Origin: Candidatus Sungiibacteriota bacterium
GTDB lineage: Bacteria; Patescibacteriota; Minisyncoccia; Sungbacterales; SURF-37
Assembly (NCBI GenBank): GCA_016203665.1
Contig: JACQMJ010000008.1
Coordinates: forward strand, 19,150-83,149
Direction of reading: 5' to 3'
Length of the DNA: 64,000 nucleotides
The position numbers and the translations under genes were made by a program. This document shows, one piece after another, positions 29,911 to 49,050 of this stretch (positions within the stretch are counted from its first letter, which is position 1; each line of letters starts with the position of its first letter). A model generated the notes under the pieces. That model made no database searches. It was not told the DNA's origin and worked only from the letters and a program-made list of their open reading frames with translations.

Positions 29911-30585
29911 CTAAATAAGCTCAAATGTTGAAAGGGAAGTCAGCCAGTGATGCGTGAAGGCGTAGTGCCGTTTCAAGTATTTCCTTAAAAACAAGACGTT
30001 GGCATCGCGGCCGTCAACGATCATCAGGAAACCGGGCCGAAAGCCCTCCTCAATATCCAATGGGTCGGCGGCCACCTGGCGCTCGCGGGTCAGCGACGGG
30101 CCGTCTAGAAACAAGAGGTCGGGCGCCGCCGCGGGGAGATCGGCGTGCCGAAATACCGGCACGCCGTGAGACTCTTCTTCGCGGAGGCGGCTATGCCGAA
30201 TGCTGCAAAACTTGGCGAGGTGCGGCGGCATGATTTTGGCAGCCGTCACCGCCCAGTAGGGATCCGCGTCAACCGATGTAATACTGCCGCTAGTCCCTGA
30301 TTCCGCGGCGTTATCGGCCAGGGCCTGGGCCATGATAATCGTGGAGCACCCGCTGCCGAATTCCAAAATGCCGGCGGGCTTCCGCTCCCGGACCACCCGA
30401 TAGAGGAACCAAAGATCCCCGAAATTCGGTCTAAAGGCCTGCGGCGGCCGAGCGCGGAGAAAATCCAAATACCCCCTGCGGCGGAGCTGGTAGCGCGCCC
30501 AGCGCTGGAACATCCGCATCATCGTTCTCCGTACCGACCATGCGGCCGCCCGCCTGGTTTTCAGAAATATATTACGATCACCCAT
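29911..30585 (-). CDS. class I SAM-dependent methyltransferase (CmcI/Methyltransf_24-like)
   Basis: Motif I is ILEFGSGCSTI. Its start overlaps the upstream GT4 by 8 nt. Confidence 0.55.
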   Translation of the reverse strand: MGDRNIFLKTRRAAAWSVRRTMMRMFQRWARYQLRRRGYLDFLRARPPQAFRPNFGDLWFLYRVVRERKPAGILEFGSGCSTIIMAQALADNAAESGTSGSITSVDADPYWAVTAAKIMPPHLAKFCSIRHSRLREEESHGVPVFRHADLPAAAPDLLFLDGPSLTRERQVAADPLDIEEGFRPGFLMIVDGRDANVLFLRKYLKRHYAFTHHWLTSLSTFELI

Positions 30586-34310: not shown

Positions 34311-34987
34311 ACCAGCATGGACTCGTCGCCCTGCACCTCGGCCAGGCGCTCCTCGGTGCCCAGGTCCGTCCAAAAGCCGCGGTGGCGCATGGTCCGCAGG
34401 AGTCCCTGCCCGGCCAACCGTGGAAAAATCGCCTGCTCGAGCATGAACGCCGTATCGGGAGCACCCTCGAGGTGCTCCGGGTGGAGAATGTAGCAGCCGG
34501 CGTTTATGAATCCCGGCTGCGGCTCGGACGGCTTTTCGAGGAAAGCTTGGATGCGATCCTTGGCAACGTCGAGAAGACCGAAATCGCGGGCATCCTCGCG
34601 CCAATGCGACACCATGAGCGCCGTGCCGGTCTCGTGGGCGCGAAGGATCGCGGAAAAATCGAAATCGGCGAGGGTATCGCCGTTCAGGACAAGGAATGGT
34701 TCAGTCAGTCCTTCGGCGGCAAAACGCACCGCACCGCCGGTACCGAGAGGCTCCGACTCCACCGCATATTCAATATGGCCCCTACCGCTTGCGGCAAGAT
34801 GCGCGATTATCTGGTCGGCCCGGAAGCCAAGCGAGAGCCGCACATCGGTCAAGCCGTGTTTGGCAAGAGCATCCAGTTGATGGTCAAGAATTGTCTTGCC
34901 ATGCACCCGTACTAGCGCTTTTGGAATATCACGGGCCGAATGCGGCAGCCTCGTGCCGCGCCCGCCGGCGAGGATAATGGTCTTCAT
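34307..34987 (-). CDS. sugar-1-phosphate nucleotidyltransferase, short HddC-like (candidate D-glycero-alpha-D-manno-heptose-1-P guanylyltransferase)
   Basis: NTP_transferase motifs ILAGGRGTRL and EPLGTGGA are present. At 226 aa it matches HddC-sized enzymes rather than 350-480-aa ManC/GalU. It is the only candidate for the fourth step of the GDP-heptose pathway in the window. Confidence 0.6.
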   Translation of the reverse strand: MKTIILAGGRGTRLPHSARDIPKALVRVHGKTILDHQLDALAKHGLTDVRLSLGFRADQIIAHLAASGRGHIEYAVESEPLGTGGAVRFAAEGLTEPFLVLNGDTLADFDFSAILRAHETGTALMVSHWREDARDFGLLDVAKDRIQAFLEKPSEPQPGFINAGCYILHPEHLEGAPDTAFMLEQAIFPRLAGQGLLRTMRHRGFWTDLGTEERLAEVQGDESMLV

Positions 34988-34998
34988 GATGGTTCCTT

Positions 34999-36171
34999 TT
35001 ATACTACCTTCCCCAGGGGCTTAGTGGCACGCGCGAGGAGATCCAAAATCTTTGCCGCGCGAGCCTCCCACGTGTACTGTCGTACTGCCATGCGCGCCGA
35101 ATTCGAGCGCCGTTCCGCCTCTTCCGACCGACCCAGAGCCAGAGCGATTACTGCCGCGAAAGCCTTGGGATCATCCGGCCCAGCGAAAAATACCATGGAC
35201 TCATCCGCGATCTCCCGAATGGACGGAATGTCGGAGGCCACGATGGGCCGGCCCGCGGCCATGTACTCGAAGAGCTTCATGGGCGAGGTATAGCGGAGCG
35301 ACTCCTCATTGCGTGCGGTATTGGGAATAACGAGGACGTCGGCCGCCCTCAGCCATAGCGGAATCTCCTTCCATGGTTTCTGCCCGACAAACACAATTTG
35401 TGATTTGGAATTTGTGATTTGGAATTTGGATATCTCGGCTTTGCCGCCGCCTACTATATAGAGTGAAACGCCATCGGAAAGATATTGCGCCGCAGCAACG
35501 AACGTCTCCACTCCTTTCCAGCGCTGGAGCGAACCCGAATAGAGCACGATCTTTTTATCCTGCGGCAAGCCCAGCCGTGCGCGCGCCTCTTGCCGGCTCA
35601 CCGAAATATCGAAACGCTCGATATCCGTCCCGTTCGGCCAATAAACAATTCGTTCGGCCGCTATGCCGAAATCCCTTTGGAGGGCAGTCATTTTCCATTT
35701 TGTCTGTACCGAAAAACCGATGGCGCGCTTGATAATCCGCCGGAAGAGCCGCGTACGGCCGGGATAATTATGGATGTCATAGAAGATCCGGGGAGCAACA
35801 AAACTTGCGAAGAAGAGCGGCACGTGGTCGTGCGAAAAAATCACGGTATCGCGAAGACCGCCGGAAAAACCGTAGCGGATAAGGAGCCAAAAGGCGGCGA
35901 CTTTTGAAAAAGAAAAAAGCTGCAGGGCAAACCAGAAGCGCTTGCCGAACGGCAGCCACAGGAGATCAACGCTCGGCAGGTAAAAAATACGGAAATTCCG
36001 CTCCACGCCGTAGTATTCATAAAGATCAATTTTAAGCGGATTGGAGCGCCGCGGCGCAAAAATAATGACCTCTGCCCCCTGCTTGGCAAACGCCGCGCAG
36101 AGTTTCACGGTGGCGAGCCCGTGGGCTTTCTCGGTCGGCAGACGGGCATTCGTAACATAGAATATCCTCAT
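34999..36171 (-). CDS. GT4 (GT-B) glycosyltransferase
   Basis: GT4 C-terminal domain: ...PMKLFEYMAAGRPIVASDIPSIREI.... It contains a 15-bp in-frame tandem repeat at 35397-35441. Confidence 0.7.
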   Translation of the reverse strand: MRIFYVTNARLPTEKAHGLATVKLCAAFAKQGAEVIIFAPRRSNPLKIDLYEYYGVERNFRIFYLPSVDLLWLPFGKRFWFALQLFSFSKVAAFWLLIRYGFSGGLRDTVIFSHDHVPLFFASFVAPRIFYDIHNYPGRTRLFRRIIKRAIGFSVQTKWKMTALQRDFGIAAERIVYWPNGTDIERFDISVSRQEARARLGLPQDKKIVLYSGSLQRWKGVETFVAAAQYLSDGVSLYIVGGGKAEISKFQITNSKSQIVFVGQKPWKEIPLWLRAADVLVIPNTARNEESLRYTSPMKLFEYMAAGRPIVASDIPSIREIADESMVFFAGPDDPKAFAAVIALALGRSEEAERRSNSARMAVRQYTWEARAAKILDLLARATKPLGKVV

Positions 36172-36178
36172 GTGAGTT

Positions 36179-36218
36179 CATTAACATTTCTCATACGATC
36201 GTATGAGAAATGTTAATG
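36179..36218. promoter_or_regulatory. perfect 40-bp AT-rich palindrome (cattaacatttctcatacga|tcgtatgagaaatgttaatg) between two GT4 genes
   Basis: The two 20-nt arms are exact reverse complements with no spacer. The element overlaps the stop codon of 36213..37346 and ends 7 nt upstream of the ATG of 34999..36171. Its GC content is about 30%, inside a genome of >60% GC. Confidence 0.6.
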
Positions 36219-37346
36219 TAAATTCATAATAGTGTGAAACGCCGCGCGATACCGTTCGAGGTATTCTTGCCATGTTAGCGGCGACAAGACCAGGACTTCC
36301 GCCCGCGCCCGCTCGGCCATCGCCTGCATGGCCGGGTAGTTCCGGCGCGCATCGGCGAGCGCTTGGGCGAGCGCCCGGCTGTCTCCCACCGGCACCACGC
36401 GGCCGGTCTCGCCGTCCCGGATAATCTCTCCGGCCACGCCAACGTCGGTCATGACGACCGGCGCGCCCGCGGCCGCCGCTTCAATAACGGTCCGGCCATA
36501 GCCTTCAAAAGCCGAGGTTAATAGGTAAAGGTCGGCAGTTTTGTAGTACGAAACGAGATCATCCTGCCACCCTTCCAGCCATACGCCTCCCGTCAACGCG
36601 AGATTCTGAATTTGAGATTCTATACTCCGCCGCTCCGGCCCCTCGCCAACGATGACGAGTCCCGCGCGGGGAAATTCGCGGCGAAATTCAGCAAAGGCCT
36701 CGAGCGCAACGTCGATGCGTTTGTCGCGATTCAGGCGTGATACCATGAGCACGATGAAGTCAAAATCGGGGTAGCGCTCGCGGCGCGAGATGGTTGGCCG
36801 GGTGCTCGCAATCGCCTCGCGGTCGACGAAAATCGGAAGGGTAACGACCTTCGCCGCGGGAATGCCGAATACGGATGCAAGCGAATGGGCAAGACGTGCA
36901 GAGACCACGCGGAACGCATCGCCGCGGGGTATGGTAAACCGGCTAATCCCATAGCGGAGCCTATCCTTCCACGAATTATGGCGAAAGTACGGACTCAAAA
37001 CATCGGCATGGAGCTGGATGTGCAGCGGCACGCCGGTAGAGCGCTTGATGAGCCAGCCGGCAAGCCCGGATTCGGCCGGATCCTGCACGCTTACCGCGTC
37101 AATCCCCCGCTCCCTGACAATGGTCTTACCGATCCGGACGGCGTCAAACGGCCGTCGAAAAAAGAAGCGGGAATTGGTCGGATAGAGCCGCGCGCCGGAC
37201 TGAAGCGCCTCGACCCGGAATCCCGGCGCCGTATAGATAACGATATGCAGTTCATCGAACAGGCGGCCGTAGGCCTCAATGCGGCTACGGGCATCCGAAT
37301 CCGGACGAAAGATGGTTGTATCGGTGCCGATAATCAGAAGTTTCAT
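36213..37346 (-). CDS. GT4 (GT-B) glycosyltransferase
   Basis: GT4 signature: EGYGRTVIEAAAAGAPVVMTDVGVAGEI. The start is at ATG 37346 (MKLLIIGTD), which overlaps the upstream stop. Confidence 0.7.
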   Translation of the reverse strand: MKLLIIGTDTTIFRPDSDARSRIEAYGRLFDELHIVIYTAPGFRVEALQSGARLYPTNSRFFFRRPFDAVRIGKTIVRERGIDAVSVQDPAESGLAGWLIKRSTGVPLHIQLHADVLSPYFRHNSWKDRLRYGISRFTIPRGDAFRVVSARLAHSLASVFGIPAAKVVTLPIFVDREAIASTRPTISRRERYPDFDFIVLMVSRLNRDKRIDVALEAFAEFRREFPRAGLVIVGEGPERRSIESQIQNLALTGGVWLEGWQDDLVSYYKTADLYLLTSAFEGYGRTVIEAAAAGAPVVMTDVGVAGEIIRDGETGRVVPVGDSRALAQALADARRNYPAMQAMAERARAEVLVLSPLTWQEYLERYRAAFHTIMNLH

Positions 37347-39601
37347 AGTGAATCCCGGATTACTTTCAGCCAATCCCCCGCGACATCATCCCACGAACGG
37401 CCGCCCCTGAACTCGCGAAGACGCTCGCAATAGGCCGCGTATGAGGGCGAATCCATGAGTATCCTCAACTTTGCGGCGATGTCCGCCTCATCCAGCGGGT
37501 CGACGAAGATGCCGATATCTTTCAGCGCTTCATAAAAACCTGTCTCCTTAGTGAGGAGAAATGGCGTACCGGTCTCGATACAGTCGAGAATCACGTTGGG
37601 ACTAACGTCCGAGAGCGAAGGGAGGAGAACGGCGTGAGCTGAAGCGATGGCCGCGCCAACTTCAGCTGTAGGGAGGGCCGGCCGGATGCGGATGCGATCG
37701 GCGGCGCCGGAGGCGCGAATTTCCGCTTTGAGTGCGGTCCGCTGCGGCCCCGCGCCGATGAGAAGAAGCCGCCAGGGCGGCGGGCAGGCCGCGGCGAACG
37801 CTCGGATGAGCCGCGGCAGATTCTTCACGCCGACGAACCGGCCGGCGAACACGAATGCCCGGTTGCGCTCGCTGCTACGGCGCTCTGGCCCGGGATAGGG
37901 CGGTCTGATGAGCGCCGCCTGTTCTGGGCGCAGGGAATATCCGGCTTGGAAAATATCATTCCGCCACCGGGATGAGAATACGATGCGCTTCGCCCGCGGA
38001 AATACCCGCTGGCTCATGCGCTGCCACGCCCGTTCCCGCGGGCTCAACGAAAGGCGCGCCAGGGCCCCGTAAAACTGCTTCAGCGTAAATTCCCTGCCGG
38101 TGCGCTCGACATAGCGCTCCCACAGGGCATCACCCTCGACGCGAATGATGAACGGCTTGCCACTCATGCGGCAGGCCACAGCAAGGGGACGCCCGACCGC
38201 GACCGGATCGAGCGCGATGGCGATATCAGCATCGCCGAGCATTCGCCATGCGGCAAAACCGTACCGGAATAGCCGAACGGGCAGGGGTGCGGAGAGCGGC
38301 ACGTATGTTTGCACGATGCCGGTACCGGGCGCCGTGCTCATCCGGCTGCCGTAGCTCAAAATAGATACGCGATGGCCGCGCCCGAAAAATTTATCGGCCA
38401 GCTTCAACGCATACGCGCCGGGGCCGCCGATGTCCGGCGGCAGCATGGGGGTCGCGATCAAAATGCGCGGGAGCATTGCGTCGCGGAACGCCTCTTTGTA
38501 GCCGGCGGCGATGGCATCCCAGGAGAATCGCTCGCGAACCATGGCCCGGCCGGCATCGGCGATCCGCCGGCTCAACGGCACATCACGGAGAAGCCGAAGC
38601 GTTTTTTCGGCCACATCGGCGGGGTCGTCCACTCTCGCAAACAGGCCGGTCCTGCCATCCTCGATGATATCGAGGATGCCCTCGACCGGCGTCCCCACGA
38701 TCGGCAGACCCGCGGCGAGCGCTTCGACAAAGGCGTTGCCCATACCCTCGGAGCGCGCCGGCCGCACGAAAACATCAGCTGCGGCTAGATACCGCGGGAG
38801 ATCAGCATACGGCACACTGCCCAAAAACGTGACCGCTGGCCCAACGCCGAGCCTCCGGGCCAGCTCCTCCAGGCGCGGCCGCTCCGGCCCGCTGCCGAGG
38901 ATATGGCAGTACACATCGGGGACGGATTTCCGTATTTGGGCGACGGCGCGGATGAGAATATCCACGCCGTTCTTCGGCACGAGCCGCGATACCGTTATAA
39001 TCATTGGCCCGTTTTCGCGTTTTTTTTCTCGCGGCACGGCAGAAAATGCATCAATGGAAACGCCATTATGGAACAATGCCACCGGACGGCGGTAGCCGAA
39101 ATGCGCCGCCTCTCCCGCGAGGTACTTTGATATCGCCGTCACCGCATCGGCGCGGCCGAGCATCCAGCGCAATGAAAGTCCAATGACGCCCAGGCGCCCG
39201 CGCCGGAGCCGGCGGCCGCCGTAACCGTATTGAATAGTAAGGATAAAGCGCGCGCCCGGCGAGAATACTTTTGCGATGGCCGCACCAAGGGCTCCGGCCG
39301 ATACATCCATGCCCCAGAGAATAGTGCCAGGCTCATCGCGTTCACGACGAACGGCAAACGGAATTAAAAGCGGTAAAATCCACTTATCAAATGGCGTGCC
39401 CCATCCGATGCGGATGATGGTTCCTTCCGGCCGCGCTTCCCGCTTGGGCAGATCCGAACGCAGACGCGCGGTAACAATGAAAAAACTAAATTCATCCGTA
39501 ATACGCCGGCTTACTTCTTGGATGGCTATTTCTGCACCGCCGACAAACGGATAGTAAGCGGTGGTGCATGCAAAAATGGCGGGTTTGCGGCCTGCCTCCA
39601 T
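37343..39601 (-). CDS. tandem two-domain GT4 glycosyltransferase (fusion of two GT-B modules)
   Basis: Two complete GT4-like units are present. The first has EGMGNAFVEALAAGLPIVGTPVEG. The second starts around aa 380 and has ...LPSLSDVSPNVILDCIETGTPFL. Confidence 0.65.
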   Translation of the reverse strand: MEAGRKPAIFACTTAYYPFVGGAEIAIQEVSRRITDEFSFFIVTARLRSDLPKREARPEGTIIRIGWGTPFDKWILPLLIPFAVRRERDEPGTILWGMDVSAGALGAAIAKVFSPGARFILTIQYGYGGRRLRRGRLGVIGLSLRWMLGRADAVTAISKYLAGEAAHFGYRRPVALFHNGVSIDAFSAVPREKKRENGPMIITVSRLVPKNGVDILIRAVAQIRKSVPDVYCHILGSGPERPRLEELARRLGVGPAVTFLGSVPYADLPRYLAAADVFVRPARSEGMGNAFVEALAAGLPIVGTPVEGILDIIEDGRTGLFARVDDPADVAEKTLRLLRDVPLSRRIADAGRAMVRERFSWDAIAAGYKEAFRDAMLPRILIATPMLPPDIGGPGAYALKLADKFFGRGHRVSILSYGSRMSTAPGTGIVQTYVPLSAPLPVRLFRYGFAAWRMLGDADIAIALDPVAVGRPLAVACRMSGKPFIIRVEGDALWERYVERTGREFTLKQFYGALARLSLSPRERAWQRMSQRVFPRAKRIVFSSRWRNDIFQAGYSLRPEQAALIRPPYPGPERRSSERNRAFVFAGRFVGVKNLPRLIRAFAAACPPPWRLLLIGAGPQRTALKAEIRASGAADRIRIRPALPTAEVGAAIASAHAVLLPSLSDVSPNVILDCIETGTPFLLTKETGFYEALKDIGIFVDPLDEADIAAKLRILMDSPSYAAYCERLREFRGGRSWDDVAGDWLKVIRDSL

Positions 39602-39619: not shown

Positions 39620-41218
39620 TCAAAACGCCTTCCGCTTCAAAACGACCATACCGGCGGCAGTCAGGAGGCCTAGAACGACGCTTGCGCCGAGAAACGCGTA
39701 TGGCTTAACGCCGGCAGAGCCAATCAGGGCTGATTGCTCCGTTTTACGAGCTATGGTCGGAGGAGGAGCCGGCGGCAAGGAAGATCCCACAGGCGCTTGC
39801 GGCTCGACAGGCGGTCCGCCCGGCGGTGGTTGGGGCTTTGGCGAGGCGGGAAGCGAAGGACTCGCGACTGATACTCGCGGCGTGACCGCGCTCGCTCCGG
39901 GCGATGAGGGCGGAAGCTTGCCTGGGGTGGGATTAGACTGCGGCCTGAATTCATAGCCATCGCGCTCCCATGATACGCCTGGAGGAAGCATTCCGGAAAA
40001 CCGGGCCGCATCCAGAGTGACACCCCGCGCATCACGGAGATCCACGTATGTCGTCGGGACGATGTGCGTATTGAGCGCAGGCAGTACAACGGTGCTTTTG
40101 GAGCCGACCACAGTATCCTGAGGAATACGGAATACTGCGCGGCGATCATCGGTTAGAAACATGCCGCCGACGTCCACGCGGGCGGCCGATGCATTGGTGA
40201 GCTCAATGAATCCATTCTCGCCCGGCTGGACCTCGCTGATGGATATTTCCGCCGGCAGCACGCTGACCGTCCGCCAGTCCGAGCCGGCGTAGTGGCCGGA
40301 CTGTACAAGGAGGTTCACGTAGTACGTGCCGGGAAAATGGAAAATGTGCGTCGGAGATTGCTTCTCCTGCGTGGAGCCGTCGCCGAAGTTCCAGAAGTAA
40401 CGCGTGGCATCAAGCGGCTTGCCGTCAAGCCCAAAGGCCAGGCCGTTGAACTGGATAATGGCGCCGGCAATGGCCAGCGCATCCGGCCCGGCATCCGCCC
40501 CAAGCGAAGGCGCCGGAGGCGGCGCGGGTGGTGGTGCAGGAACGGGCGCGGGTTCGGATGCCGGAGGCGTGCCTTCCGGCGCGGCAGGCGGCGGTGGCGG
40601 GATACTGCCGCTGCCGACCGCATTGGCGCTCCCCAAAGACGGTGAGGCGAACGCCTGCCACGAGGCCGCACTGCCGCGAACGCCGTCGGCAGTAAGTCCG
40701 ATGGAACTCCCCTCCGAGAAACCGGAAATGTCGAAATACGTTCCCGCAGCCCAAAGCCCGGCCTCGACGGCAGTTGATTCCCAGGTCTTCTTCTCCGAGC
40801 TCCCCGGCTTATGATAGCGCACAAAGTCCACGATAGTGTCCTTTGTCCGGCCGCCGAAGCGGAAGAGCGCGACGGAACCGGAGGAATTGCCCATGTTCAA
40901 ACTTGCCGCGGAATGATAAAGATTTGCCGCATCATTCGTGCCGCTCGTCCGGAGGTGGATCGTCACGAATGATTGCGCGGCAAGCGAGAACCCGACCGGA
41001 AACGGGAAATACCCGATACCGTCAGGGTAAAGTTCCCAGCCGCCCATATCCGCGGCCGTGGCATCGGGGTTATAGATTTCTATTTTTTCCAATCCGGTAT
41101 CCGTTCCGGAAGGGTCAAAGAGGATCTCGTTGATGACGACGGATGCAGATACAAAATTCGTCAGAAAGATGCTATTCCCTAGAACGGCCAACATCCAATA
41201 CGCAAATTCTCTTCGCAT
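39620..41218 (-). CDS. secreted cell-surface protein: 2x lamin-tail (LTD) domains + PKD domain + Pro-rich linkers + C-terminal TM anchor
   Basis: Signal/TM region MLAVLGNSIFLTNFVSA. LTD-like segments are VVINEILFDPSGTD...KIEIYNP and ISISEVQPGENGFIELTN. The PKD motif is RYFWNFGDGSTQ...GTYYVNLLV. Pro-rich segments include PAPVPAPPPAPPPAP. The C-terminus is a hydrophobic helix followed by KRKAF. Confidence 0.6.
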   Translation of the reverse strand: MRREFAYWMLAVLGNSIFLTNFVSASVVINEILFDPSGTDTGLEKIEIYNPDATAADMGGWELYPDGIGYFPFPVGFSLAAQSFVTIHLRTSGTNDAANLYHSAASLNMGNSSGSVALFRFGGRTKDTIVDFVRYHKPGSSEKKTWESTAVEAGLWAAGTYFDISGFSEGSSIGLTADGVRGSAASWQAFASPSLGSANAVGSGSIPPPPPAAPEGTPPASEPAPVPAPPPAPPPAPSLGADAGPDALAIAGAIIQFNGLAFGLDGKPLDATRYFWNFGDGSTQEKQSPTHIFHFPGTYYVNLLVQSGHYAGSDWRTVSVLPAEISISEVQPGENGFIELTNASAARVDVGGMFLTDDRRAVFRIPQDTVVGSKSTVVLPALNTHIVPTTYVDLRDARGVTLDAARFSGMLPPGVSWERDGYEFRPQSNPTPGKLPPSSPGASAVTPRVSVASPSLPASPKPQPPPGGPPVEPQAPVGSSLPPAPPPTIARKTEQSALIGSAGVKPYAFLGASVVLGLLTAAGMVVLKRKAF

Positions 41219-41301: not shown

Positions 41302-42576
41302 ATGAAATGCCGAACATTGCTTGCTATAGCTACCGCCTTCACCTGGTTTTCGACGCCGCTCGCCTACGCCGCCGATACCGCGGCGCTCATCCGCGAAATA
41401 GAGGCGCAGATTGCAGTACTGCAGCAGCAGCTGGCTATACTCGTCGCAGAACAGCAGTCTCCTGCCGCTGCGACGGCAAGTCAGTTCACGAAAACGCTAC
41501 GGCGCGGCAATCGGAGCGCCGAAGTCACACGGCTCCAGGAATTTCTCGCCAAGACGCCGGAATTCTATCCGGAAGGCCTGGTAACCGGATTTTTCGGCCC
41601 CGCGACCGAACGCGCAGTCAAGCGCTTCCAACAAACGTACGCCATCCCAGCGATCGGTATTGTCGGTCCGCAAACGCGCGCCAAATTAAATGAGCTCCTG
41701 ATCGCCCCTTCAGCGCCGCCTGCCCCGAGCCGAGCCGAAGAGGCGCCCGCGCCAACACCGGCGCCTGAACCGGCCCCTCAACCCGCTCCGACTCCGGAGC
41801 CCCCTCCCGCGCCCGCACCGACGCCCCCTCCATCGCCTGCGCCGACTCCCCCGTCAACGCCCGTCTACACCCCAACACCCGGCGAACTCGGCCAGCCGGC
41901 CATCTCCGCGTTAGTTTGGGGAACAGATTACATGAATGTGCAATTTGCACACGATCCCTCGAGCTACACCCGCTCCTACACCATCCTCCGGAGGAAACCG
42001 GGCGAAACAGCAGACACCGCCCTCGGCACTTTTGCCCTCATTCCCGCCGGCAGCAGTACCGCTACCACTTCCGACGGTATGACGTTCCACCGCTTGAGTA
42101 TAAACGCCTGGGAGTGGCGCCAGACGCTTGATCTTGCGAGCCAGCCGACCGGCGACTACGTCTTCGCGGTAAAAGCCCTTGGCGACGGCGGCGCGGAAGG
42201 GTTCCCCTCCCCTGGCCGGATCGCAACACTCCACCCCAAGGCCGAATTTGAAGAGCTCCTGGAGGGCGCGCCGCTCCGGACCGTTTTCTCAAACACCATC
42301 ACGCGCTTCCCCATCACCATGCGGATCAAAAATTTCTACACCGCCCTCTACTACCACTACGAGCTCTGGGACGGTGCCACACGCGTCTGGGACAGCGCCT
42401 ACCTCAATACCACCACAAGTTCAAAAATTGAGGCGGCGTTCCAGAACACGAACGGCTACCCCTTTGTAGCCGGGAAGACGTACCGCTTGAGCGTAAACGT
42501 ATTCGACAATAACACCGGCGCTGATTCGACCACGAAACAGCCGACAAGCGAACTCACCTTCACCTACCAGCCGTAA
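41302..42576 (+). CDS. secreted protein with coiled-coil segment, peptidoglycan-binding domain (PG_binding_1-like), Pro-rich linker and C-terminal beta-rich domain
   Basis: The start was taken at the internal ATG 41302 (MKCRTLLAIATAFTWFSTPLAYA, a signal peptide). A heptad-like segment (IAVLQQQLAILVAEQQ) is followed by the PG-binding motif LRRGNRSAEVTRLQEFLA...GFFGPATERAVKRFQQ. The giant protein has the same N-terminal architecture. Confidence 0.6.
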   Translation: MKCRTLLAIATAFTWFSTPLAYAADTAALIREIEAQIAVLQQQLAILVAEQQSPAAATASQFTKTLRRGNRSAEVTRLQEFLAKTPEFYPEGLVTGFFGPATERAVKRFQQTYAIPAIGIVGPQTRAKLNELLIAPSAPPAPSRAEEAPAPTPAPEPAPQPAPTPEPPPAPAPTPPPSPAPTPPSTPVYTPTPGELGQPAISALVWGTDYMNVQFAHDPSSYTRSYTILRRKPGETADTALGTFALIPAGSSTATTSDGMTFHRLSINAWEWRQTLDLASQPTGDYVFAVKALGDGGAEGFPSPGRIATLHPKAEFEELLEGAPLRTVFSNTITRFPITMRIKNFYTALYYHYELWDGATRVWDSAYLNTTTSSKIEAAFQNTNGYPFVAGKTYRLSVNVFDNNTGADSTTKQPTSELTFTYQP

Positions 42577-42632: not shown

Positions 42633-43457
42633 TCACGGATTTTGCGCCTTCAGCCGATTCACTTCGGCGGCAATAACGGCGCGCTGTTGGGCGCTCATCG
42701 CGGCGCTCGCGCCTGTCTGAACACCAAGCACCTTTTCATAATACTCAATCGCACGGGCGACCTTGCCCATCGTCTCGGAAAGTGCCGCGTAGGAAATCAT
42801 GAGGTTTATTTCATTCGGTATCTTCATTAGACCCTGCTCGAGCACCCGTTCGGCCGCCGGCAGATCTCCCATAACCTCGCGGTAAAAATCAGCGAAGCTG
42901 CTGTAGTACGCAGAGTTCATCGGATCGCGCTGGAGGGCCGCCTCGTACTTCGCGATGGCCTTTGCCGGCTCTTTCAGGTAGTAGCCGTAAAGGCCGGCGA
43001 GATTAAAGAACGACAATCCATCGCCTTCGGCAATGCGGTTCACGTACTCGTAGGCTTCGGCCGCGCCGGCGTAATCGCCGTAGAAGCGTTTAATGTAGGC
43101 CACCCGCATCCAGCCATCCGCATCACGGGGGTTGGCCGCGAGCGACACGGCGAGCTCGGCAAGCTCTTGGCGCGATCGCTCGTAGGTGTTGGCCGGCACC
43201 TGCTTTAAAATGTCGGGGCTGGGGTTTAAATTCTGTACCGGGATGCCGGTATAAGCAGGCGCCGTGCCCCCCAAAGCTTGCGGCGGAGGCGTGGGTTCAG
43301 CCGACGGAGTTGCCGGGGGCGGCAATATACCGGCAGTTTCGGATGGAACACGGAAGTATTGCTGCCAGGCAATCGCTCCGCCAATAGCGGCGAGGATAAA
43401 AAACGCGCTTACACCAATAAGAATATTGCGATGCTGGTAGAAAAGTGTTGCAAACAT
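42633..43457 (-). CDS. membrane-anchored TPR-repeat protein
   Basis: The start was taken at the internal ATG 43457 (MFATLFYQHRNILIGVSAFFILAAIGG, a TM anchor). This is followed by a Pro-rich spacer and TPR-like repeats (...AYIKRFYGDYAGAAEAYEY..., ...AKAIAKYEAALQRDPMNSAYY...). Confidence 0.55.
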   Translation of the reverse strand: MFATLFYQHRNILIGVSAFFILAAIGGAIAWQQYFRVPSETAGILPPPATPSAEPTPPPQALGGTAPAYTGIPVQNLNPSPDILKQVPANTYERSRQELAELAVSLAANPRDADGWMRVAYIKRFYGDYAGAAEAYEYVNRIAEGDGLSFFNLAGLYGYYLKEPAKAIAKYEAALQRDPMNSAYYSSFADFYREVMGDLPAAERVLEQGLMKIPNEINLMISYAALSETMGKVARAIEYYEKVLGVQTGASAAMSAQQRAVIAAEVNRLKAQNP

Positions 43458-43828
43458 AGAAATCTGCGGGCTCACGCCCGCGGTACTCCCTCGCGGGAGT
43501 ACCCGTCCTTTTGCCAAATCGCTGGTGTTTCGCTTCGCGAAACGCTTTGGCAAAAGTCCTGAATTTATATATTCCCCTCCGTCCCGCCTTCGGCGGGACT
43601 CCGGGCTGGCATTCATCCGCCGGCTCACGCCGGCGGTTTTCTGCCAGTGAATATAAAGGCCAGTATACACCGCAGAAAATTTGCACACAAGGTGACTGAT
43701 AATTTGTAGTTCACTATAAGCGGCAAAAGCGCCGCAAGGCGCTTTTGCCAATGGAAATGGAAAAGAAACCAGCCCCCTTTGAGAGGGGGCTGGAATCCGA
43801 GTCCTACAAGGATAGACTCTTTAGACCT

Positions 43829-46800
43829 TTACAGACTGAGGGTAATGGACTGCGCGCCGCCGGAGGGCAGGCCCGGTACGACGAAGCCGTTGTACCAGTC
43901 CGGACCCATGATGCCGTTGCCCGAGCCGGAGTGCGTGGTCGTGGAGTTGCCCGACCAGATGAAGTCGTCACCCGGATTGGTGTCGTCGGCGTTCACGCCC
44001 GTCGCTCCAACGTTCCTGGCCTGTACACCCGAGTCGCCGTCATCCGCGAAGGGCGCAGTGGTGGCATAGGTGTAGACGCGCGACCCCACGAGGAAGCCGG
44101 CGTCGCTGCAGTCGGTAGTTCCCGAGCAGAGCGAGCCGATCCATGTGTTATCGCCCATCATCTGCACCGTGGCGGAATCACCGGCGTCGGCACCAGTTAC
44201 GTCCCCGCGGAGCTCGAAGTAGTAGGTCGAGCCGGCCGGGACATTGATGGCCTCGCGGGAGTTGGCGCCGGTTGAGGACGGAGTCGCCGGGTTGAAGTAG
44301 ATCGCTTTGTCGGTCGTGGTGGCGCGATCGTTCTCAACGCCGTCGTTGTTGCCGTCGGAACTGAAGAACGTTGAGCCGTTGTTCAGCTGGCCGTCGGCGG
44401 AGTAGGCGCCGCCCGAGAAGTTAGAACCGGTGAAGGCGAAGAGGCGGAGGTTGGTGATGACGACATCCGTATTAGACTGATCATCACCGCTCGTCGCGAT
44501 GGAGAAGGTGAACTTGAAGAGCGAAACGCCGTTCCCGCCGGCGGTCGAGGTGACCGAGAAGCGGTAGAGCACCTTCTGGGCCTGATCAGCCAAGCTCGTT
44601 GAAGGCACGGACAGAACCGAGATCGTCGGGTAGCCCCGCACGATCCGGGTACCGGCGGATGCCGTGTCGGAGTCGCTCCGCGAGGCATAGACATTGGTCG
44701 AGGACTGCGCGCCGATCGCATAGGTTGCGGAGTTGGAGTTGTCCGCGGACGCGTCGCGATCCCAGTCCACCGTGACAAGGTGGCCGGGGCGCGCCGCCTG
44801 GTTCACGCCGATCGCACCGATCACGCCCTTCACCGTCAGGAGCTTGTCACCGTCCTTAGGGATGGTGAAGCTCGAGAGGGTTGCGGTGGCGTTGTCGAGC
44901 GACGTCAGGACGGCCTCGCCAACCTTGGTCGAACCGTCCCAGAGCGTGATGGAGGAGAGGTCCTGCGGGGTGTTAGAGGCGATATTCGAGAGCTGGAGCC
45001 CAATCTGCTTCAGGTCGAGGTCCTCGTTCGTGCCGGTAATACGGAGCACGGCCAGCACCACCTCCTGGCCGGACTGAGCCAGGCGGACTGCCGGACTCGA
45101 ACCGTCGAGGGAAACCGAGAGCGTGCCGCCGGACTTGATCGTCATCTTGTTGTTGTTGTCCGTGGAGTTGGCGTTGGAGCCGTTGTTCAGGGTCGGGGTG
45201 ACCGTGTTCCCCGAGGTAAGGCCCGTCGCGCCGTAGGAAGCGCCGATGTTGATCTTCCACTCGATCGTGTCATCAGCCGTGGAGTTCGCCGGGACGTCGC
45301 ACTTGAGATCAACCGTCTTCAGCGTGCCCTTCGGGATAATGAGGTTCTTGTCGAGCGTGAAGGTCTTCTGGCCGTCGGACGTCGGGTTCTGAACGTTCGT
45401 GCCGGTGTTCAAGGCGGTCGTACCGTCGAAGAGCTGGCAGTTGGTCGGCTCGGAGGAGCCGGTATCAGTCTCAAGCGCAAACTGCGCCGAGGTGAACCGG
45501 ACGTCCTCGCCCGAGGAGGTGCCGTCGAAGAGGATCTTCGCGAAGGTGAAGCCGGTGACGCCGGCGACGACGTTCTGATTCGTCGGCGTGTTCGAAAGGC
45601 TGATCGAAGAGGTCGCCGTCTTGACGGTGAAAGAGTTACCGGTCACCGCCGTGGTCGGCGTCGGCGTGATGCTGTTTCCGGACACCGCGCCGGTCGCGGT
45701 CCAGCCGTTCGGGGTGGTCGAAGCCGAGACCAGGGTGTCGGAATCGAAGTCGGTGGAGAGCTTGCCCTTCAACAGGTAGGCGCGCTTCCCGATCGGGAAG
45801 GTTACCGAGTCGGTGAAGGTGAAGATCATCTCGGCGTCGGTCGTACCCGAGCCGTCAAGCGGCCCGGCGACTACCTTGCCGGTGGTGTTGTCATAAAGGG
45901 CCACCTGCGAGAAGTCGACCTCGGTTACCGAGGAGTCGTTCCTATTGGCCGAAACGCGGATGATCATGCTCGTGACATTCACATCCTCGCCCTTGACCTC
46001 AACATCGAAGGCACCCAAGGGCTGGTCGTTCAGGTTGACCGCGATGTTCTGCGCCGGGATGGCCGTGGATTTGGTCACCGAGAGCGAGCCCGAACCGATC
46101 GTGGCCTCGAAGGCGTCCCACACCGGGTTCGTCGCCTGGAAGGTGCCGTCGTCGTCGGTTGAGGAGTCACCCGAGTCAGTGGCCGACGGCGTCAAGCCGT
46201 AGCCGAACTGATTGCCGACCACGTAGAGGTCGGTGTAGCGGTACATATCGAAGTCAACGCCGCGGTTGGTTCCGGATTCAATGTCGCCCTTCACGTAAAA
46301 CTCCTTGGTGTTGCCCTTGGTGATGGTGACACCGTCGCCGAAGTTCGCGGTGTAGTACTTGCCGTCCGCGGAGATCGTTACCGCATAGTCCGTGCCGTCG
46401 AAGTTCACCTTGATGTTCTTCAGGTCAGTGGTGGCAGCCGAACCGGACTGGTTCAGGCTCACCCACTTGGCCTTGACGTCCTCGGCCGAGCCGGCGGTGA
46501 TACGCATACCGGTGAAGGTGTAGCCGGTCGTGCCGATCTCTTTCGTCGCGCCGCTGCCGGGATCGTTCACGCCTTTGGTGAGCGTCACCGTGCCGATGGT
46601 GAGGGAGGAATTCATCGTGATCGGACTGCCGACAATGGGCAGGGAACCGTTCACGACGGTCGCTCCGGCGTCAACGGCCACGACAGCGAGCTTCACGATG
46701 TCGCCGCCGTCAGAGGCGGACGAGGGACGATTAAGGCCTATAGTCAGGGTGCGCGACGTGCCGGCCTTGATGGTGATGGGCTCGTTCAGGATCGCCTGGT

Positions 46801-47536
46801 GGTTCGAGTTCAGGTTTTTGGAAAGGCCGATCTGGAGGCCGTCCTCACCGAGCACCACCACGCTGCCCACCGACGAGTCGCTGGATGGGCCCTGGCGCTC
46901 GACGGTGATTGAATTCACCTTAACGTCGCCGTCAGAGGAGGCGGTGAGGGTGAACTTGGTCGCCGGGACGCGCGAGGCGTTCTTGGGCGCGAGCGAATCG
47001 CCTGGCTGCGTGGCCGCGGCCACGGTCAAACCCGTGCCTGCCGGGGCTGCCGGTACTTCTGGGGCCGGGGTGCCGGGTGTCGTCGGAGTTGTCGGAGTTG
47101 TCGGAGTTGTCGGTACGCCTGCTACCAGCGAGTTATACCTGGCTTGCGAAAGCGGGCCGAAGTAACCTACGGCCGGGGAGACGCCGTTCGAGGACTGCCA
47201 CGCGGCAACGGCTGATCGGGTCAATGAGCCGAAGTACATCGTCTCATTGCCCGGGGAGCCGGCGCCGCTCGATGCGACTTTGTTCGCGGTTGAATTCAGA
47301 TACTGCTGCAGACACTTCACGTCGTCACCCGTTACGCCGACCGTGAGACTGCGGGTGAAACTGCATTTGCCTGCGGGTGCCGCCTGCTGGCCCTGGAGGG
47401 TTGCGATCTGCGCCTGGAGGGCTGCGATCTGGGCAAGGAGCTCGTCGATGGTCACCGCGGAGGCAACCTGCGGCAAGAGTGCGCCCACACCCGAGAGCAT
47501 GGCGGCGGTGGAGAGCGACACGATGACTCGCGTCAT
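43829..47536 (-). CDS. giant (about 1235 aa) Thr/Ser/Gly/Asp-rich surface protein with N-terminal signal peptide, coiled-coil, peptidoglycan-binding domain, (PTT)n linker and multiple beta-sandwich repeats; S-layer-like candidate
   Basis: The start was taken at ATG 47536 (MTRVIVSLSTAAMLSGVGALLPQVASA). A heptad segment IDELLAQIAALQAQIATLQGQ is followed by the PG-binding motif FTRSLTVGVTGDDVKCLQQYL...GYFGPLSQARYNSL, then TPTTPTTPTTPGTP. About 1000 aa of low-complexity T/S/G/D/N-rich repeats follow. No C-terminal anchor is present. Confidence 0.65.
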   Translation of the reverse strand: MTRVIVSLSTAAMLSGVGALLPQVASAVTIDELLAQIAALQAQIATLQGQQAAPAGKCSFTRSLTVGVTGDDVKCLQQYLNSTANKVASSGAGSPGNETMYFGSLTRSAVAAWQSSNGVSPAVGYFGPLSQARYNSLVAGVPTTPTTPTTPTTPGTPAPEVPAAPAGTGLTVAAATQPGDSLAPKNASRVPATKFTLTASSDGDVKVNSITVERQGPSSDSSVGSVVVLGEDGLQIGLSKNLNSNHQAILNEPITIKAGTSRTLTIGLNRPSSASDGGDIVKLAVVAVDAGATVVNGSLPIVGSPITMNSSLTIGTVTLTKGVNDPGSGATKEIGTTGYTFTGMRITAGSAEDVKAKWVSLNQSGSAATTDLKNIKVNFDGTDYAVTISADGKYYTANFGDGVTITKGNTKEFYVKGDIESGTNRGVDFDMYRYTDLYVVGNQFGYGLTPSATDSGDSSTDDDGTFQATNPVWDAFEATIGSGSLSVTKSTAIPAQNIAVNLNDQPLGAFDVEVKGEDVNVTSMIIRVSANRNDSSVTEVDFSQVALYDNTTGKVVAGPLDGSGTTDAEMIFTFTDSVTFPIGKRAYLLKGKLSTDFDSDTLVSASTTPNGWTATGAVSGNSITPTPTTAVTGNSFTVKTATSSISLSNTPTNQNVVAGVTGFTFAKILFDGTSSGEDVRFTSAQFALETDTGSSEPTNCQLFDGTTALNTGTNVQNPTSDGQKTFTLDKNLIIPKGTLKTVDLKCDVPANSTADDTIEWKINIGASYGATGLTSGNTVTPTLNNGSNANSTDNNNKMTIKSGGTLSVSLDGSSPAVRLAQSGQEVVLAVLRITGTNEDLDLKQIGLQLSNIASNTPQDLSSITLWDGSTKVGEAVLTSLDNATATLSSFTIPKDGDKLLTVKGVIGAIGVNQAARPGHLVTVDWDRDASADNSNSATYAIGAQSSTNVYASRSDSDTASAGTRIVRGYPTISVLSVPSTSLADQAQKVLYRFSVTSTAGGNGVSLFKFTFSIATSGDDQSNTDVVITNLRLFAFTGSNFSGGAYSADGQLNNGSTFFSSDGNNDGVENDRATTTDKAIYFNPATPSSTGANSREAINVPAGSTYYFELRGDVTGADAGDSATVQMMGDNTWIGSLCSGTTDCSDAGFLVGSRVYTYATTAPFADDGDSGVQARNVGATGVNADDTNPGDDFIWSGNSTTTHSGSGNGIMGPDWYNGFVVPGLPSGGAQSITLSL

Positions 47537-48462
47537 CCTGCCGCCCGCGGGAATGAATGTACCCATAGAAGTTACAACGAAGTTATGATTTCGGCGCGCG
47601 ATGCGCGAACCGAAAACCTTTATCCATCGTTCCGGTGCGCCGACGCTCCAGCTCTTCTTAAAAAGAGAAAAACTGGAAACACGCAACAAAGCGATGGAAG
47701 TCAACGGATGAATACTGGAATCGTTTCAGGAACACGGTTCCGGGCGAACCCCGCTGGCGCGGGATCGACCTGCCCGAAACGCATGATGGTTTCAAGAAGT
47801 AAGAATTACTGTAGAAAAACTGATCCGTTCAATTTTCAAAGTTCTGTCGTGCCGGCGCTCGCAATCGTTTCAATCCGCGTCTCAAGCCGTATCAGGCGCA
47901 AAAGGCATCATAGCGGCCTGGGACCCGGACTGCAACTTGACGTATCGGATTAACGGCGTTCCCGCTATCCCACAGCAAAAGAAAGAACTCCCGATGTCCT
48001 GGAACGTTCCATTCGTTCCGTTCATCAACCCATCAATACCCTCTATTATAGGAGCCACTCAACCGGACGGGCAAACGGCTAAATGTGGATAAGTAGGAAC
48101 GCCTGAAACCACACTCGACACGAGTTGTTTTGCCCATAACCGGACAGCGGCAAATCCTATGCTACCCATTATAGGGAACCGCCGGGAACCGGGCAAAAGC
48201 CGTGTGGATAACTGAAAATGCCTATTTTCCCTGCAAGAACGCCCAAGATTGAAGGGGGACACTGAAAATTCATCCGGCCTTCAAACCGTGGCGCGCCAGC
48301 AATACCGAATCTTACCAGTAGCCGAGTATATGGTGTCCTGTCAAAGCCGCAGAACCAGCGGGATGCCCTTTGCGGTGAGTTTTTATTCCTATAGGACATC
48401 TATCGGACAGCAAAAAATACGATTAAATATCGGTATTATGCATATCGGACACAAAATATGTC

Positions 48463-49050
48463 CTATATGGAATACACGGTCCAGCGGTTATCGCCCTGCC
48501 GCTGGATAAAGCCGGCGCTTACGAGCTGCAGAAGATCGCGCTGGAGCGTTTTTTCGCTATAGGTATCCCCGAATATTTGGCGAATATCCCCGAGTTGGGC
48601 CCGGCCGTTGCCCGAGAGGTAGGTCAGGATCCGGGATTGGCGCTCATTCGGGGTGAATAGAGCTCTAGAGGGCAGAGAATCCGTTGCTGCCAAATCATTA
48701 TTCCCTTCCGGAATCGCCCGCAGGCCGTCGCTGACGGCGCCATATGCCGCAATTACCCGGCCGGCGTTACCAGCGGTGATAAGACAAGAGCGCTCGGTAA
48801 AGCGAATAATCTCAACCGCTCCCGCAATCAAGGCCGTGAGCCGCTCTCGCTCGTTGGAACGCCGGACTTCGGTAAAAAATGCCATACCGGTCACGCCGCC
48901 CAAAATTTCGGTGGCGTGCCGCCGGAGGGAATGCTTCAGGGCGGAATCAAACGCGGCAAAACCGGTCAGCCGGTAAATCGCTTCGGCCGCGGCCAGGGCT
49001 TTTCTTCGCGCCTCCTGCAGTGCATCGGCATCTGACATAATGCCATCCAC
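48463..49050 (-). CDS. hypothetical protein with C-terminal DeoR-type winged-helix DNA-binding domain (putative transcriptional regulator)
   Basis: The C-terminal ~55 aa (RILTYLSGNGRAQLGDIRQIFGDTYSEKTLQRDLLQLVSAGFIQRQGDNRWTVY) match the wHTH pattern of DeoR/Fic-associated HTH domains. The N-terminal 130 aa are uncharacterised. It sits directly downstream of clpB. Confidence 0.4.
   Translation of the reverse strand: MDGIMSDADALQEARRKALAAAEAIYRLTGFAAFDSALKHSLRRHATEILGGVTGMAFFTEVRRSNERERLTALIAGAVEIIRFTERSCLITAGNAGRVIAAYGAVSDGLRAIPEGNNDLAATDSLPSRALFTPNERQSRILTYLSGNGRAQLGDIRQIFGDTYSEKTLQRDLLQLVSAGFIQRQGDNRWTVYSI

Follow-up and report, generated by a model that had tools for sequence, protein, structure and literature searches.

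Analysis of a 64,000-nucleotide (nt) stretch of contig JACQMJ010000008.1 (assembly GCA_016203665.1, positions 19,150 to 83,149 of the forward strand) from a Candidatus Sungiibacteriota bacterium, here called the window, revealed a gene for a giant secreted protein. The gene lies among surface-protein genes that adjoin a glycan-biosynthesis island (positions 1 to 39601). An earlier note on this DNA had proposed that the gene and the island form an S-layer-like glycoprotein system. The giant protein emerges as a good candidate for the surface coat of the ultra-small, uncultivated Paceibacteria, whereas an S-layer lattice, decoration of the protein with sugars and a link to heptose are unproven. 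The gene and its parts were located in the window as follows.

43769 to 43793, minus strand: intrinsic terminator, 36 nt past the stop codon, with a 10-bp stem, 8 GC pairs and a T-rich tail
43829 to 47566, minus strand: giant surface protein gene (open reading frame, conserved upstream ATG, annotation in a metagenome-assembled genome, >862 homologues)
43832 to 47041, minus strand: all-beta body with repeats D1 and D3 to D6, a divergent sixth repeat (D7), a small insert (D2) and a C-terminal cap (D8) (AlphaFold2, hhalign)
43952 to 44554, minus strand: most variable, indel-rich C-terminal region, approximately amino acids (aa) 995 to 1195 (comparison with distant homologues)
47042 to 47119, minus strand: Pro/Thr-rich disordered linker, (PTT)4 followed by PAPEVPAAPAG (sequence, low model confidence)
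47120 to 47365, minus strand: PG_binding_1 domain, a three-helix bundle (Pfam PF01471)
47381 to 47455, minus strand: heptad (coiled-coil-like) helix, VTIDELLAQIAALQAQIATLQGQQA (sequence, AlphaFold2 helix at model residues 2 to 14)
47456 to 47566, minus strand: signal peptide, MGTFIPAGGRMTRVIVSLSTAAMLSGVGALLPQVASA, read from the sequence, with cleavage between LPQVASA and VT
47567 to 48211, minus strand: promoter region and long 5' leader, with two tandem units of ~50 nt and then a leader of ~470 nt

The long minus-strand open reading frame (ORF), with its stop side at 43829, encodes 1,235 aa when read from the ATG at 47536, which is the length that the earlier note had given. Another in-frame ATG lies 30 nt upstream, at 47566, and yields a product of 1,245 aa. 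This ATG is kept in all 9 of 9 aligned close loci, and one relative carries ACG at the 47536 position. A contig from a metagenome-assembled genome (MAG; CAZLFX010000002.1, GCA_964559385.1) that is 99.89% identical over 21.8 kb was annotated with a product of 1,245 aa. Because the upstream ATG is conserved and the near-identical MAG annotates the longer product, the gene was set at 43829 to 47566. The ORF of the earlier note was retained, but its start was moved, the ATG at 47566 being the most likely start as judged from this comparison.

Inspection of the deduced protein confirmed the layout described in the earlier note: a signal peptide, a coiled-coil-like helix, a peptidoglycan (PG)-binding domain, a (PTT)n linker and a T/S-rich body were found in the sequence, by the Pfam match and in the structure model. 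The single hydrophobic segment spans aa 3 to 21 of the 1,235-aa form, and the N-terminal pattern of the signal-peptide region is conserved in an alignment of 108 homologues (alignment A1). These features show a Sec-type signal peptide, through which the protein is predicted to be exported. The helix that follows has a three-heptad core, VTIDELLAQIAALQAQIATLQ, in which I and L are each spaced seven residues apart. The PG_binding_1 match (E 1.6e-6) reached 28.6 bits against a gathering cut-off of 23, and the cysteine pair C23 and C40 of this domain is nearly invariant in alignment A1. In a PDB profile search with the giant protein, the PG-binding region alone gave matches (1lbu, 5nm7, 7rum). The VPTTPTTPTTPTTPGTP linker leads into a body rich in Thr, Ser, Gly, Asp and Asn; the composition includes 12.6% T, 11.1% S, 10.7% G, 7.1% D and 6.3% N, and there are six cysteines. 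The mature protein has a mass of ~124 kDa and a pI of 4.4, which, together with the low number of cysteines, fits an outer coat protein. A second hydrophobic segment, a membrane anchor, a sortase anchor (LPXTG) and a lipobox are all absent from the sequence. The secretion signal and wall-anchoring module known from S-layer proteins were both found, in the form of the signal peptide and the above-cut-off PG_binding_1 domain, and the anchor is swappable within the family.

An AlphaFold2 (AF2) model of the monomer only was built from alignment A1; its numbering runs 35 behind that of the 1,235-aa form (model residue n is residue n+35). The mean predicted local distance difference test (pLDDT) score was 87.1, and the predicted template modeling (pTM) score was 0.53. 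The model consists of an N-terminal helix, the three-helix PG bundle (helices at residues 36 to 47, 69 to 81 and 93 to 103, with pLDDT >90 and 90 to 97 across the bundle), the disordered linker (residues 105 to 127, pLDDT below 50) and unbroken beta structure from residue 134 to the C-terminus. This beta body comprises ~1,070 residues at a pLDDT of ~90. Comparison of sub-alignments by hhalign revealed that D1 (130 to 240), D3 (293 to 410), D4 (441 to 585), D5 (590 to 740) and D6 (760 to 920) are mutually homologous (probability 85 to 98%, E 1e-13 to 7e-6), with a weak match for D7. Self-BLAST of the giant protein detected no repeats, which are visible solely by profile-profile comparison. These comparisons show a body predicted to consist of one beta-sandwich domain in five or six divergent copies. 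The beta-repeat description of the earlier note holds at this profile level, to which self-BLAST is blind, and the structure prediction that it had recommended as a check returned an all-beta body with beta-sandwich repeats and generic immunoglobulin (Ig)-like matches.

Searching the PDB with Foldseek revealed generic strings of Ig-like or macroglobulin (MG) domains, namely, PrgB, mastigoneme, alpha-2-macroglobulin (A2M)/CD109/C3 and integrin legs, at 8 to 11% identity and template modeling (TM) scores of 0.1 to 0.17. The MG-domain strings in A2M, CD109 and complement C3 were matched with E values of 1e-12 to 1e-10, and one homologue is named "SpoIID/LytB protein" by its source, as might be expected if the giant protein were an A2M-like protease trap or another enzyme-like wall protein. 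However, the TM scores of these matches were only 0.09 to 0.10, the repeats are all of one simple beta-sandwich type, and no catalytic domain was detected by Pfam or NCBIfam. The six cysteines lie in the contexts KCSF, KCLQ, NCQL, KCDV, LCSG and DCSD, so that there is no CxEQ thioester motif, and a lipobox is likewise missing. The A2M reading was rejected because of the absent thioester motif, and an enzyme-like function of either kind is considered highly improbable.

The best Foldseek match was to the enterococcal adhesin PrgB, in its Ig-like region (E 4e-16). In addition, the C-terminal region (aa 995 to 1195) is the most variable part of the protein, with an identity to distant homologues of 0.20 to 0.32 compared to 0.45 to 0.62 elsewhere and a gap fraction of up to 0.45. 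Both observations would suit a host-attachment adhesin of an episymbiont, in which the Ig-like string reaches out and a variable tip binds the host, instead of a continuous coat. In three Paceibacteria, the genes expressed at the highest levels were found to include those for secreted proteins with PG-binding and Ig-like domains, which were read as host-attachment factors (Kuroda et al. 2024, PMC10936435); this also speaks for an adhesin. The one Kuroda protein that was checked is encoded by 2,079 nt and has 692 aa; because of this length, it was neither equated with the giant-protein family nor counted as evidence for expression.

Analysis of the family revealed how broadly the giant protein is distributed. 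The homology search returned >862 full-length homologues; nearly all of the best 120 are full length (1,150 to 1,290 aa) and share 41 to 85% identity. The source names of these homologues are only "hypothetical" or "peptidoglycan-binding protein," and the proteins come from Sung-, Harrison- and Pacebacteria and other Patescibacteria. A scan with one genome per species detected a homologue in at least 519 species, including Giovannoni-, Yanofsky-, Niyogi- and Kaiserbacteria and Paceibacterota, and an exhaustive profile search yielded 3,227 clusters (50% identity) at E ≤ 1e-30. Every named full-length homologue belongs to Patescibacteria, mostly to Parcubacteria/Paceibacteria candidate phyla, and the closest named relatives are Sungbacteria. 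Length and collinearity are conserved across the family. In loci that also carry ClpB, the median identity was 42% for the giant protein and 56% for ClpB, and the giant protein is more conserved than the adjoining GT4 glycosyltransferase genes (29 to 44%) and tetratricopeptide repeat (TPR) genes (26 to 46%) of the same loci. This constraint speaks against an adhesin: host-tracking adhesins usually vary more, whereas the giant protein keeps ~42% full-length identity across many candidate phyla, presumably with different hosts. The conservation profile was highest in the anchor (~0.6), even along the body (0.45 to 0.55) and lowest in the C-terminal region, which fits a wall-proximal N-terminus and an exposed, diversifying far end.

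Some family members, including eight that were noted individually, carry an unannotated N-terminal module of ~190 aa in place of the helix and PG_binding_1. This module, which has a repeated "G..VY.V...GkkR.f"-like motif, gave no match in a Pfam search at E ≤ 1. It heads >1,100 Patescibacteria proteins, in which it is joined to cupredoxin, Fn3, Big_1 and other extracellular domains, and represents a candidate cell-surface display or anchor domain specific to the candidate phyla radiation (CPR). Because the module swaps in and heads many other extracellular proteins, the N-terminus of the giant protein is viewed as an interchangeable display/anchor module. The PG-binding module adjoins the signal peptide, and a generic Patescibacteria display module can take its place; the PG-binding module is therefore taken to anchor the protein to the producer's own wall, a further point against an adhesin. 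The adhesin is the main rival for the role of the protein, and we regard it as rather unlikely, although adhesin and coat roles are compatible with each other.

The expression signals of the candidate coat gene were analyzed in the non-coding gap upstream of it, which measures 925 nt in the window and 858 to 890 nt in close relatives. Two tandem promoter units, at 48168 to 48211 and 48045 to 48092, read TTATCCACA, N7-9, TTTGCCCG, N17-18, TATAAT. The exact TTATCCACA 9-mer occurs in two copies only in the 64-kb window, both of them in these units. It was also detected on the sense strand 400 to 750 nt upstream of the gene in 53/79 related loci (within the range L006 to L087), followed by a -35-like element and TATAAT. 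Elsewhere, TTATCCACA occurs at approximately 1 copy per 23 kb, with many copies in intergenic DNA just 3' of giant or TPR genes. Because these other copies in relatives occupy intergenic, promoter-like positions, TTATCCACA is regarded as a promoter-associated element. The 9-mer is DnaA-box-like, and the adjoining -35-like element reads TTTGC; it may represent a class-wide promoter or activator element that is bound by DnaA or another factor. An interpretation of these sites as the DnaA boxes of oriC was rejected in view of the two exact copies in the window, the promoter-like positions of the other sites and the absence of a dnaA gene.

The leader extends over ~470 nt from the proximal -10 element to the ATG, and a length of 400 to 750 nt appears to be kept across the family. 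Sequence blocks of the leader are conserved in eight closer relatives; similarity detected by nhmmer is limited to the closer clade. An Rfam scan of the whole window revealed two tRNAs only and nothing in the 925-nt gap, and RNAalifold analysis of nine leaders gave no consensus structure, the alignment being too gappy.

With an effective number of codons (ENC) of 35.7, the giant gene is the most codon-biased of 50 window genes (median, ~46), and its G+C content at third codon positions (GC3) is 0.84. The genes that come closest to it in bias include ClpB and HtrA. In five relatives, the giant gene ranked 1/15, 2/16, 1/12, 6/14 and 6/14. The codon bias, the dedicated promoter, the long leader and the strong terminator are moderately consistent with high expression, for which they provide indirect signs. 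Over the giant gene, the GC skew of the plus strand is +0.11 and +0.07 (positions 44001 to 48000), and the cumulative skew peaks at ~48 kb. This peak was rejected as a replication landmark because it is due to the C-ending codons of the giant gene, with C3/(C3+T3) = 0.83.

The surroundings of the giant gene were compared over the 10-kb flanks of homologous loci. The following genes lie next to it in the window.

39620 to 41218, minus strand: secreted LTD + PKD domain protein with a C-terminal transmembrane segment (Pfam LTD and PKD; transmembrane segments at aa 10 and 507)
41302 to 42576, plus strand: 424-aa anchor-module paralogue with signal peptide, heptad helix, PG_binding_1 (Pfam, 48.2 bits) and a long Pro-rich linker
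42633 to 43457, minus strand: membrane-anchored TPR protein with one transmembrane segment, a Pro-rich linker and a TPR domain (Pfam TPR families)
48463 to 49050, minus strand: winged-helix (DeoR-like helix-turn-helix) protein, candidate regulator (Pfam HTH_DeoR, weak)

Six look-ups with homologues at 42 to 80% identity revealed a shared gene order of ClpB, small ORF(s), the giant gene, the TPR position and a GT4 block. The small ORFs include a winged-helix (DeoR-like) protein in 5/6, the TPR protein follows the giant gene in 4/6 while an unannotated ORF of 266 to 278 aa stands there in the other 2, and the GT4 block holds a double GT4 of ~750 aa. In the wider set of loci, the winged helix-turn-helix (wHTH) gene was found upstream on the same strand in 40/69 (seen in L086, L087, L003, L004 and L005), the TPR gene directly downstream on the same strand in 50/66 (median gap, 438 nt; annotated with 274 aa in L088) and ClpB upstream in 33/65. 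GT4 homologues were found downstream, at a distance of up to 10 kb, in 35/54 relatives compared to upstream in 1/65; the other 19/54 relatives carry the giant protein without a glycosyltransferase (GT) cluster within reach. These results indicate that co-location with a glycan cluster is frequent and conserved in position, but not obligatory, so that the comparative-genomics check proposed in the earlier note bore out the linkage for the most part. The constant core of the locus is wHTH - giant - TPR, and these genes are steadier companions of the giant gene than the GTs. With its predicted extracytoplasmic TPR domain, the TPR protein would fit an assembly or scaffold role.

The 424-aa paralogue is found at the equivalent position in L086, L087 and L088. 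Its C-terminus is a small beta-rich domain that differs from the body of the giant protein, with which it could pair via the helix. The LTD + PKD protein is present in L001 and L088 too. The motif TGTCC(G/T)ATA occurs four times within 80 nt (48390 to 48467; three minus, one plus), directly where the wHTH gene has its 3' end, and it recurs at the equivalent place in L086 and L087. This cluster may serve as an operator, perhaps one recognized by the wHTH protein. Distant relatives have an extra ORF of ~240 aa with multiple transmembrane segments between ClpB and the wHTH gene, which is absent in the window. Near superoxide dismutase/ferredoxin, L086 (1 to 1233) and L087 (1730 to 3550) carry a NifU-like gene of 606 to 615 aa with a weak LAGLIDADG_3 match, which suggests an intein-like insertion; the counterpart region of the window (~55.0 to 56.6 kb) contains a 247-aa ORF only.

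The glycan-biosynthesis island, which extends up to the LTD + PKD gene, has the following components.

1 to 30585, minus strand: HddA/GmhA/GmhB-like genes, several NDP-sugar epimerases/dehydratases of the short-chain dehydrogenase/reductase (SDR) type, UDP-glucose dehydrogenase, TagF-like genes, flippase and GT2/polytopic pairs (Pfam, NCBIfam, transmembrane-segment counts)
3240 to 4646 and 20894 to 22252, minus strand: two TagF-like CDP-glycerol glycerophosphotransferases (Pfam)
4714, 5841, 22249, 30578, 34999, 36213 and 37343 (double GT4): GT4-type and related GT-B genes (Pfam)
7092 to 10014, minus strand: HddA-, GmhA- and GmhB-like genes and an RmlC-like gene (NCBIfam, Pfam)
10713, 26541 and 28825: GT2 genes (Pfam)
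23359 to 24738, minus strand: Wzx-type flippase (Pfam Polysacc_synt)
24751 to 29877, minus strand: two pairs of a GT2 and a polytopic membrane protein (Pfam, transmembrane-segment counts)
30578 to 39601, minus strand: GT4 block with the double GT4 (37343 to 39601), three more GT4 genes, a nucleoside triphosphate (NTP)-transferase, a GT-C protein and a methyltransferase (Pfam)
32529 to 34289, minus strand: 586-aa polytopic GT-C-fold protein (AF2 and Foldseek)

At least 10 GT-A/GT-B glycosyltransferases and the flippase bear out the gene content listed in the earlier note; of the five methyltransferases counted there, four are clear and the fifth is weak. The note had also read a complete GDP-heptose pathway from this island. 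HddA, GmhA and GmhB were indeed the best NCBIfam matches in the heptose cluster (7092 to 9480), but all three scored below their cut-offs (135/600, 184/276 and 154/178 bits, respectively). The nucleotidyltransferase at 34307 lies 25 kb from this cluster and resembles ManC (mannose-1-phosphate guanylyltransferase, 134/440) more than HddC (86/300). The heptose genes are 35 kb from the giant gene and outside the compared flanks. Beside them, an RmlC-like cupin epimerase and a GDP-mannose-dehydratase-like SDR (12841 to 13881, minus strand) were observed, while RmlA, RmlB and RmlD are missing. Such a gene set is more like the modified-heptose pathway of the Campylobacter capsule (6-deoxy or epimerized GDP-heptose) than plain GDP-heptose synthesis. 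GDP-heptose pathways serve capsules and O-antigens too, and for this reason the Aneurinibacillus S-layer precedent was treated as a lead and not as a test.

The Ppm1/Pmt-like pairs of the earlier note were borne out on the side of the two GT2 genes, for which polyprenyl-phosphate-sugar synthases gave the best matches (ArnC, AglJ, dolichyl-phosphate hexose transferase), but not on the side of their polytopic partners (24751 to 26568, 605 aa, 7 transmembrane segments; 27250 to 28815, 521 aa, 11 transmembrane segments; both minus strand). No Pfam match was obtained at E ≤ 1 for any of three polytopic island proteins. The only PMT/PMT_2 protein detected by Pfam is encoded outside the island, at 61503 to 62930, 14 kb from the giant gene. 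Its Pfam scores were 102.9 bits for PMT_2 and 71.1 for PMT; in NCBIfam, an ArnT-like family came first (110.7, cut-off 567), and the Pmt equivalog scored 32 against 800. The AF2 model of the 586-aa protein in the GT4 block (pLDDT 85.3, pTM 0.85) was matched by Foldseek to DPY19, AftA, STT3, PglB, AglB and ArnT (probability 1.0, TM scores 0.41 to 0.50). Its D41 is invariant and forms part of a DE motif in the first loop, in keeping with the GT-C class. The fold indicates an extracytoplasmic transfer step from a lipid-linked sugar and does not reveal the acceptor. The two polytopic GT2 partners are probably further divergent GT-C-type transferases. A GT-C homologue with 36% identity carries the source label "Nanoarchaeota archaeon," which could reflect a CPR-DPANN transfer or a mis-binned contig.

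Regarding the product of the island, the Thr/Ser-rich coat protein is a plausible acceptor of its glycan. Several observations accord with a different product, namely, a secondary wall polymer, a teichoic-acid-like polymer or a capsule, in which case the giant protein would be a surface protein that is not glycosylated by the island and lies in a general envelope neighborhood. A wall polymer as island product fits the two TagF-like enzymes equally well, and one further TagF-type protein occurs in a relative. The Wzx-type flippase and the many GT4/GT2 genes are typical of polysaccharide loci, GDP-heptose with RmlC-like modifiers is known from the Campylobacter capsule and Yersinia O-antigen pathways, and AftA and ArnT, enzymes that act on glycans and lipids, are likewise among the GT-C fold matches. 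By Pfam, no Wzy_C/PglL-type O-oligosaccharyltransferase domain was found in any island protein. The 19/54 relatives that keep the giant protein without a nearby GT cluster point in the same direction. On the other side, the position of the GT4 block is conserved, as shown by its presence 3' of the giant gene in 35/54 relatives compared to 5' in 1/65, and the giant protein has 24% Ser+Thr. Moreover, the GT-C matches include the protein-modifying DPY19, STT3, PglB and AglB, and a PMT/PMT_2 protein is encoded 14 kb away. A wall polymer or capsule as the product, with the giant protein left unglycosylated, is a serious possibility to which we assign slightly less than even chances.

Taken together, the data were interpreted as follows. 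The giant protein may be the main outer coat protein of the cell, abundant and anchored to peptidoglycan, in a family that extends across Parcubacteria/Paceibacteria; we give this proposal an even chance of being correct. The N-terminal module would hold the protein noncovalently on the peptidoglycan of the producer itself, probably with the heptad helix mediating oligomerization, and the Pro/Thr linker would span the wall. The domain string would form the outermost layer of the cell, densely packed and organized as a true S-layer lattice or as a noncrystalline coat, with the fast-evolving C-terminal region facing outward, farthest from the wall. The gene would be transcribed alone and at a high level from a promoter of the TTATCCACA/-35/-10 type, tandem here, with transcription ending at the strong terminator. 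The wHTH neighbor is a candidate regulator, and the membrane TPR neighbor is a candidate assembly factor. The GT4, GT-C and Wzx genes would make a glycan on a lipid carrier, with its transfer taking place outside the membrane. A bolder version of the proposal is tentative, and we consider it possible but doubtful. According to it, the protein is the so far unassigned S-layer protein of Paceibacteria, the largest CPR class, and represents a new architecture, with a coiled-coil + PG_binding_1 anchor that attaches it directly to peptidoglycan and can be exchanged for a second, CPR-specific anchor, a private beta-sandwich repeat, Wzx/GT-C O-glycosylation and a class-wide TTATCCACA promoter with a 400- to 750-nt leader.

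A number of points weigh against a coat of the S-layer type, in addition to the PrgB match, the relatives without a GT cluster, the missing Wzy_C domain and the TagF-like enzymes discussed above. Pfam and NCBIfam scans of the giant protein and three homologues detected PG_binding_1 only and no SLH, CWB2 or SLAP domain, and to our knowledge PG_binding_1 has not been established as an anchor of S-layers. The family also diverges more slowly than is usual for S-layer proteins. No S-layer protein was among the top 50 Foldseek matches in the PDB. The codon bias was unremarkable in 2/5 relatives. Abundance, surface exposure, lattice formation and glycosylation of the giant protein are all putative. 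The observations of the earlier note proved largely right, and its interpretation is supported in part: from the proposed S-layer-like glycoprotein system, the anatomy of a wall-anchored surface protein and the frequent linkage to glycan genes were retained, but a known S-layer anchor and an O-oligosaccharyltransferase domain were not found.

CPR bacteria/Patescibacteria make up a large share of bacterial diversity. S-layer-like envelopes have been seen by cryo-electron microscopy (cryo-EM) on some CPR bacteria, while the searched literature gives no gene for such a layer in Parcubacteria/Paceibacteria: no paper assigning an S-layer gene in these groups was found. For Nealsonbacterium, an apparent S-layer was described by cryo-EM, and three PG-binding proteins were noted there without assignment. 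In a 2026 review, the layer still appears only as "S-layer reported in some species," again without the name of a gene. With the giant-protein family, the identity of the CPR surface layer becomes directly testable, since one conserved, recognizable family with a confident model is a target for metaproteomics, glycoproteomics and fitting into cryo-electron tomography data. The family also offers antibody or affinity handles for cell sorting and a way to study the surface that episymbionts expose to hosts and phages. The conserved promoter element and the long leader provide a first handle on strong-promoter architecture in Paceibacteria. If the giant protein is merely one of several surface proteins, the result is an ordinary improvement of annotation.

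Comparison with known systems revealed both shared and distinct features; the family is uncharacterized, and its anchor and repeat type differ from those of known S-layer proteins. Actinobacterial Ppm1 and Pmt (GT39) resemble the window in the GT2 synthase-like genes beside polytopic proteins and in the PMT/PMT_2 protein at 61503 to 62930; unlike Pmt, the polytopic partners in the island have no PMT signature. In Gram-positive bacteria, glycan or wall-polymer loci are often adjacent to S-layer genes. This holds for Aneurinibacillus thermoaerophilus and Geobacillus stearothermophilus NRS 2004/3a (SgsE, slg), where, as here, the surface-protein gene adjoins a large glycan cluster. Of the GDP-D-glycero-D-manno-heptose set of the Aneurinibacillus type (GmhA/HddA/GmhB/HddC), HddA-, GmhA- and GmhB-like genes are best matches in the window, below cut-off. 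The Aneurinibacillus/SgsE systems rely on an ABC-transporter route and on a WsaB-type O-oligosaccharyltransferase that contains a Wzy_C domain. In contrast, the window encodes GT-C proteins and a flippase of the Wzx type and gave no Wzy_C match, and its heptose genes lie 35 kb from the giant gene.

The giant protein shares with SbsB/SbsC of Geobacillus stearothermophilus and Sap/EA1 of Bacillus anthracis a secreted, acidic, Cys-poor chain of ~100 to 130 kDa, in which an N-terminal wall-binding module precedes a string of beta-sandwiches, as well as a monocistronic gene with strong expression signals. SbsC has nine domains (PMC13635256). Those proteins are anchored by SLH domains on a pyruvylated secondary wall polymer, whereas the giant protein has a heptad helix and PG_binding_1. 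There is no sequence similarity between them, and the giant-protein family is much more conserved than typical S-layer proteins. Tandem Ig-like domains also build the coats of Deinococcus radiodurans (HPI) and Haloferax (csg) (PMC10120038). The HPI and csg layers resemble the giant protein in this domain array; they differ in being anchored through an outer-membrane complex or by lipid/archaeosortase, and no homology to the giant protein is detectable. Finally, PrgB and the antigen I/II adhesins likewise form a surface stalk of beta-sandwich domains. These adhesins carry a C-terminal sortase (LPXTG) anchor and specific adhesin domains, whereas the giant protein is distinguished by its N-terminal PG_binding_1 domain and its class-wide conservation.

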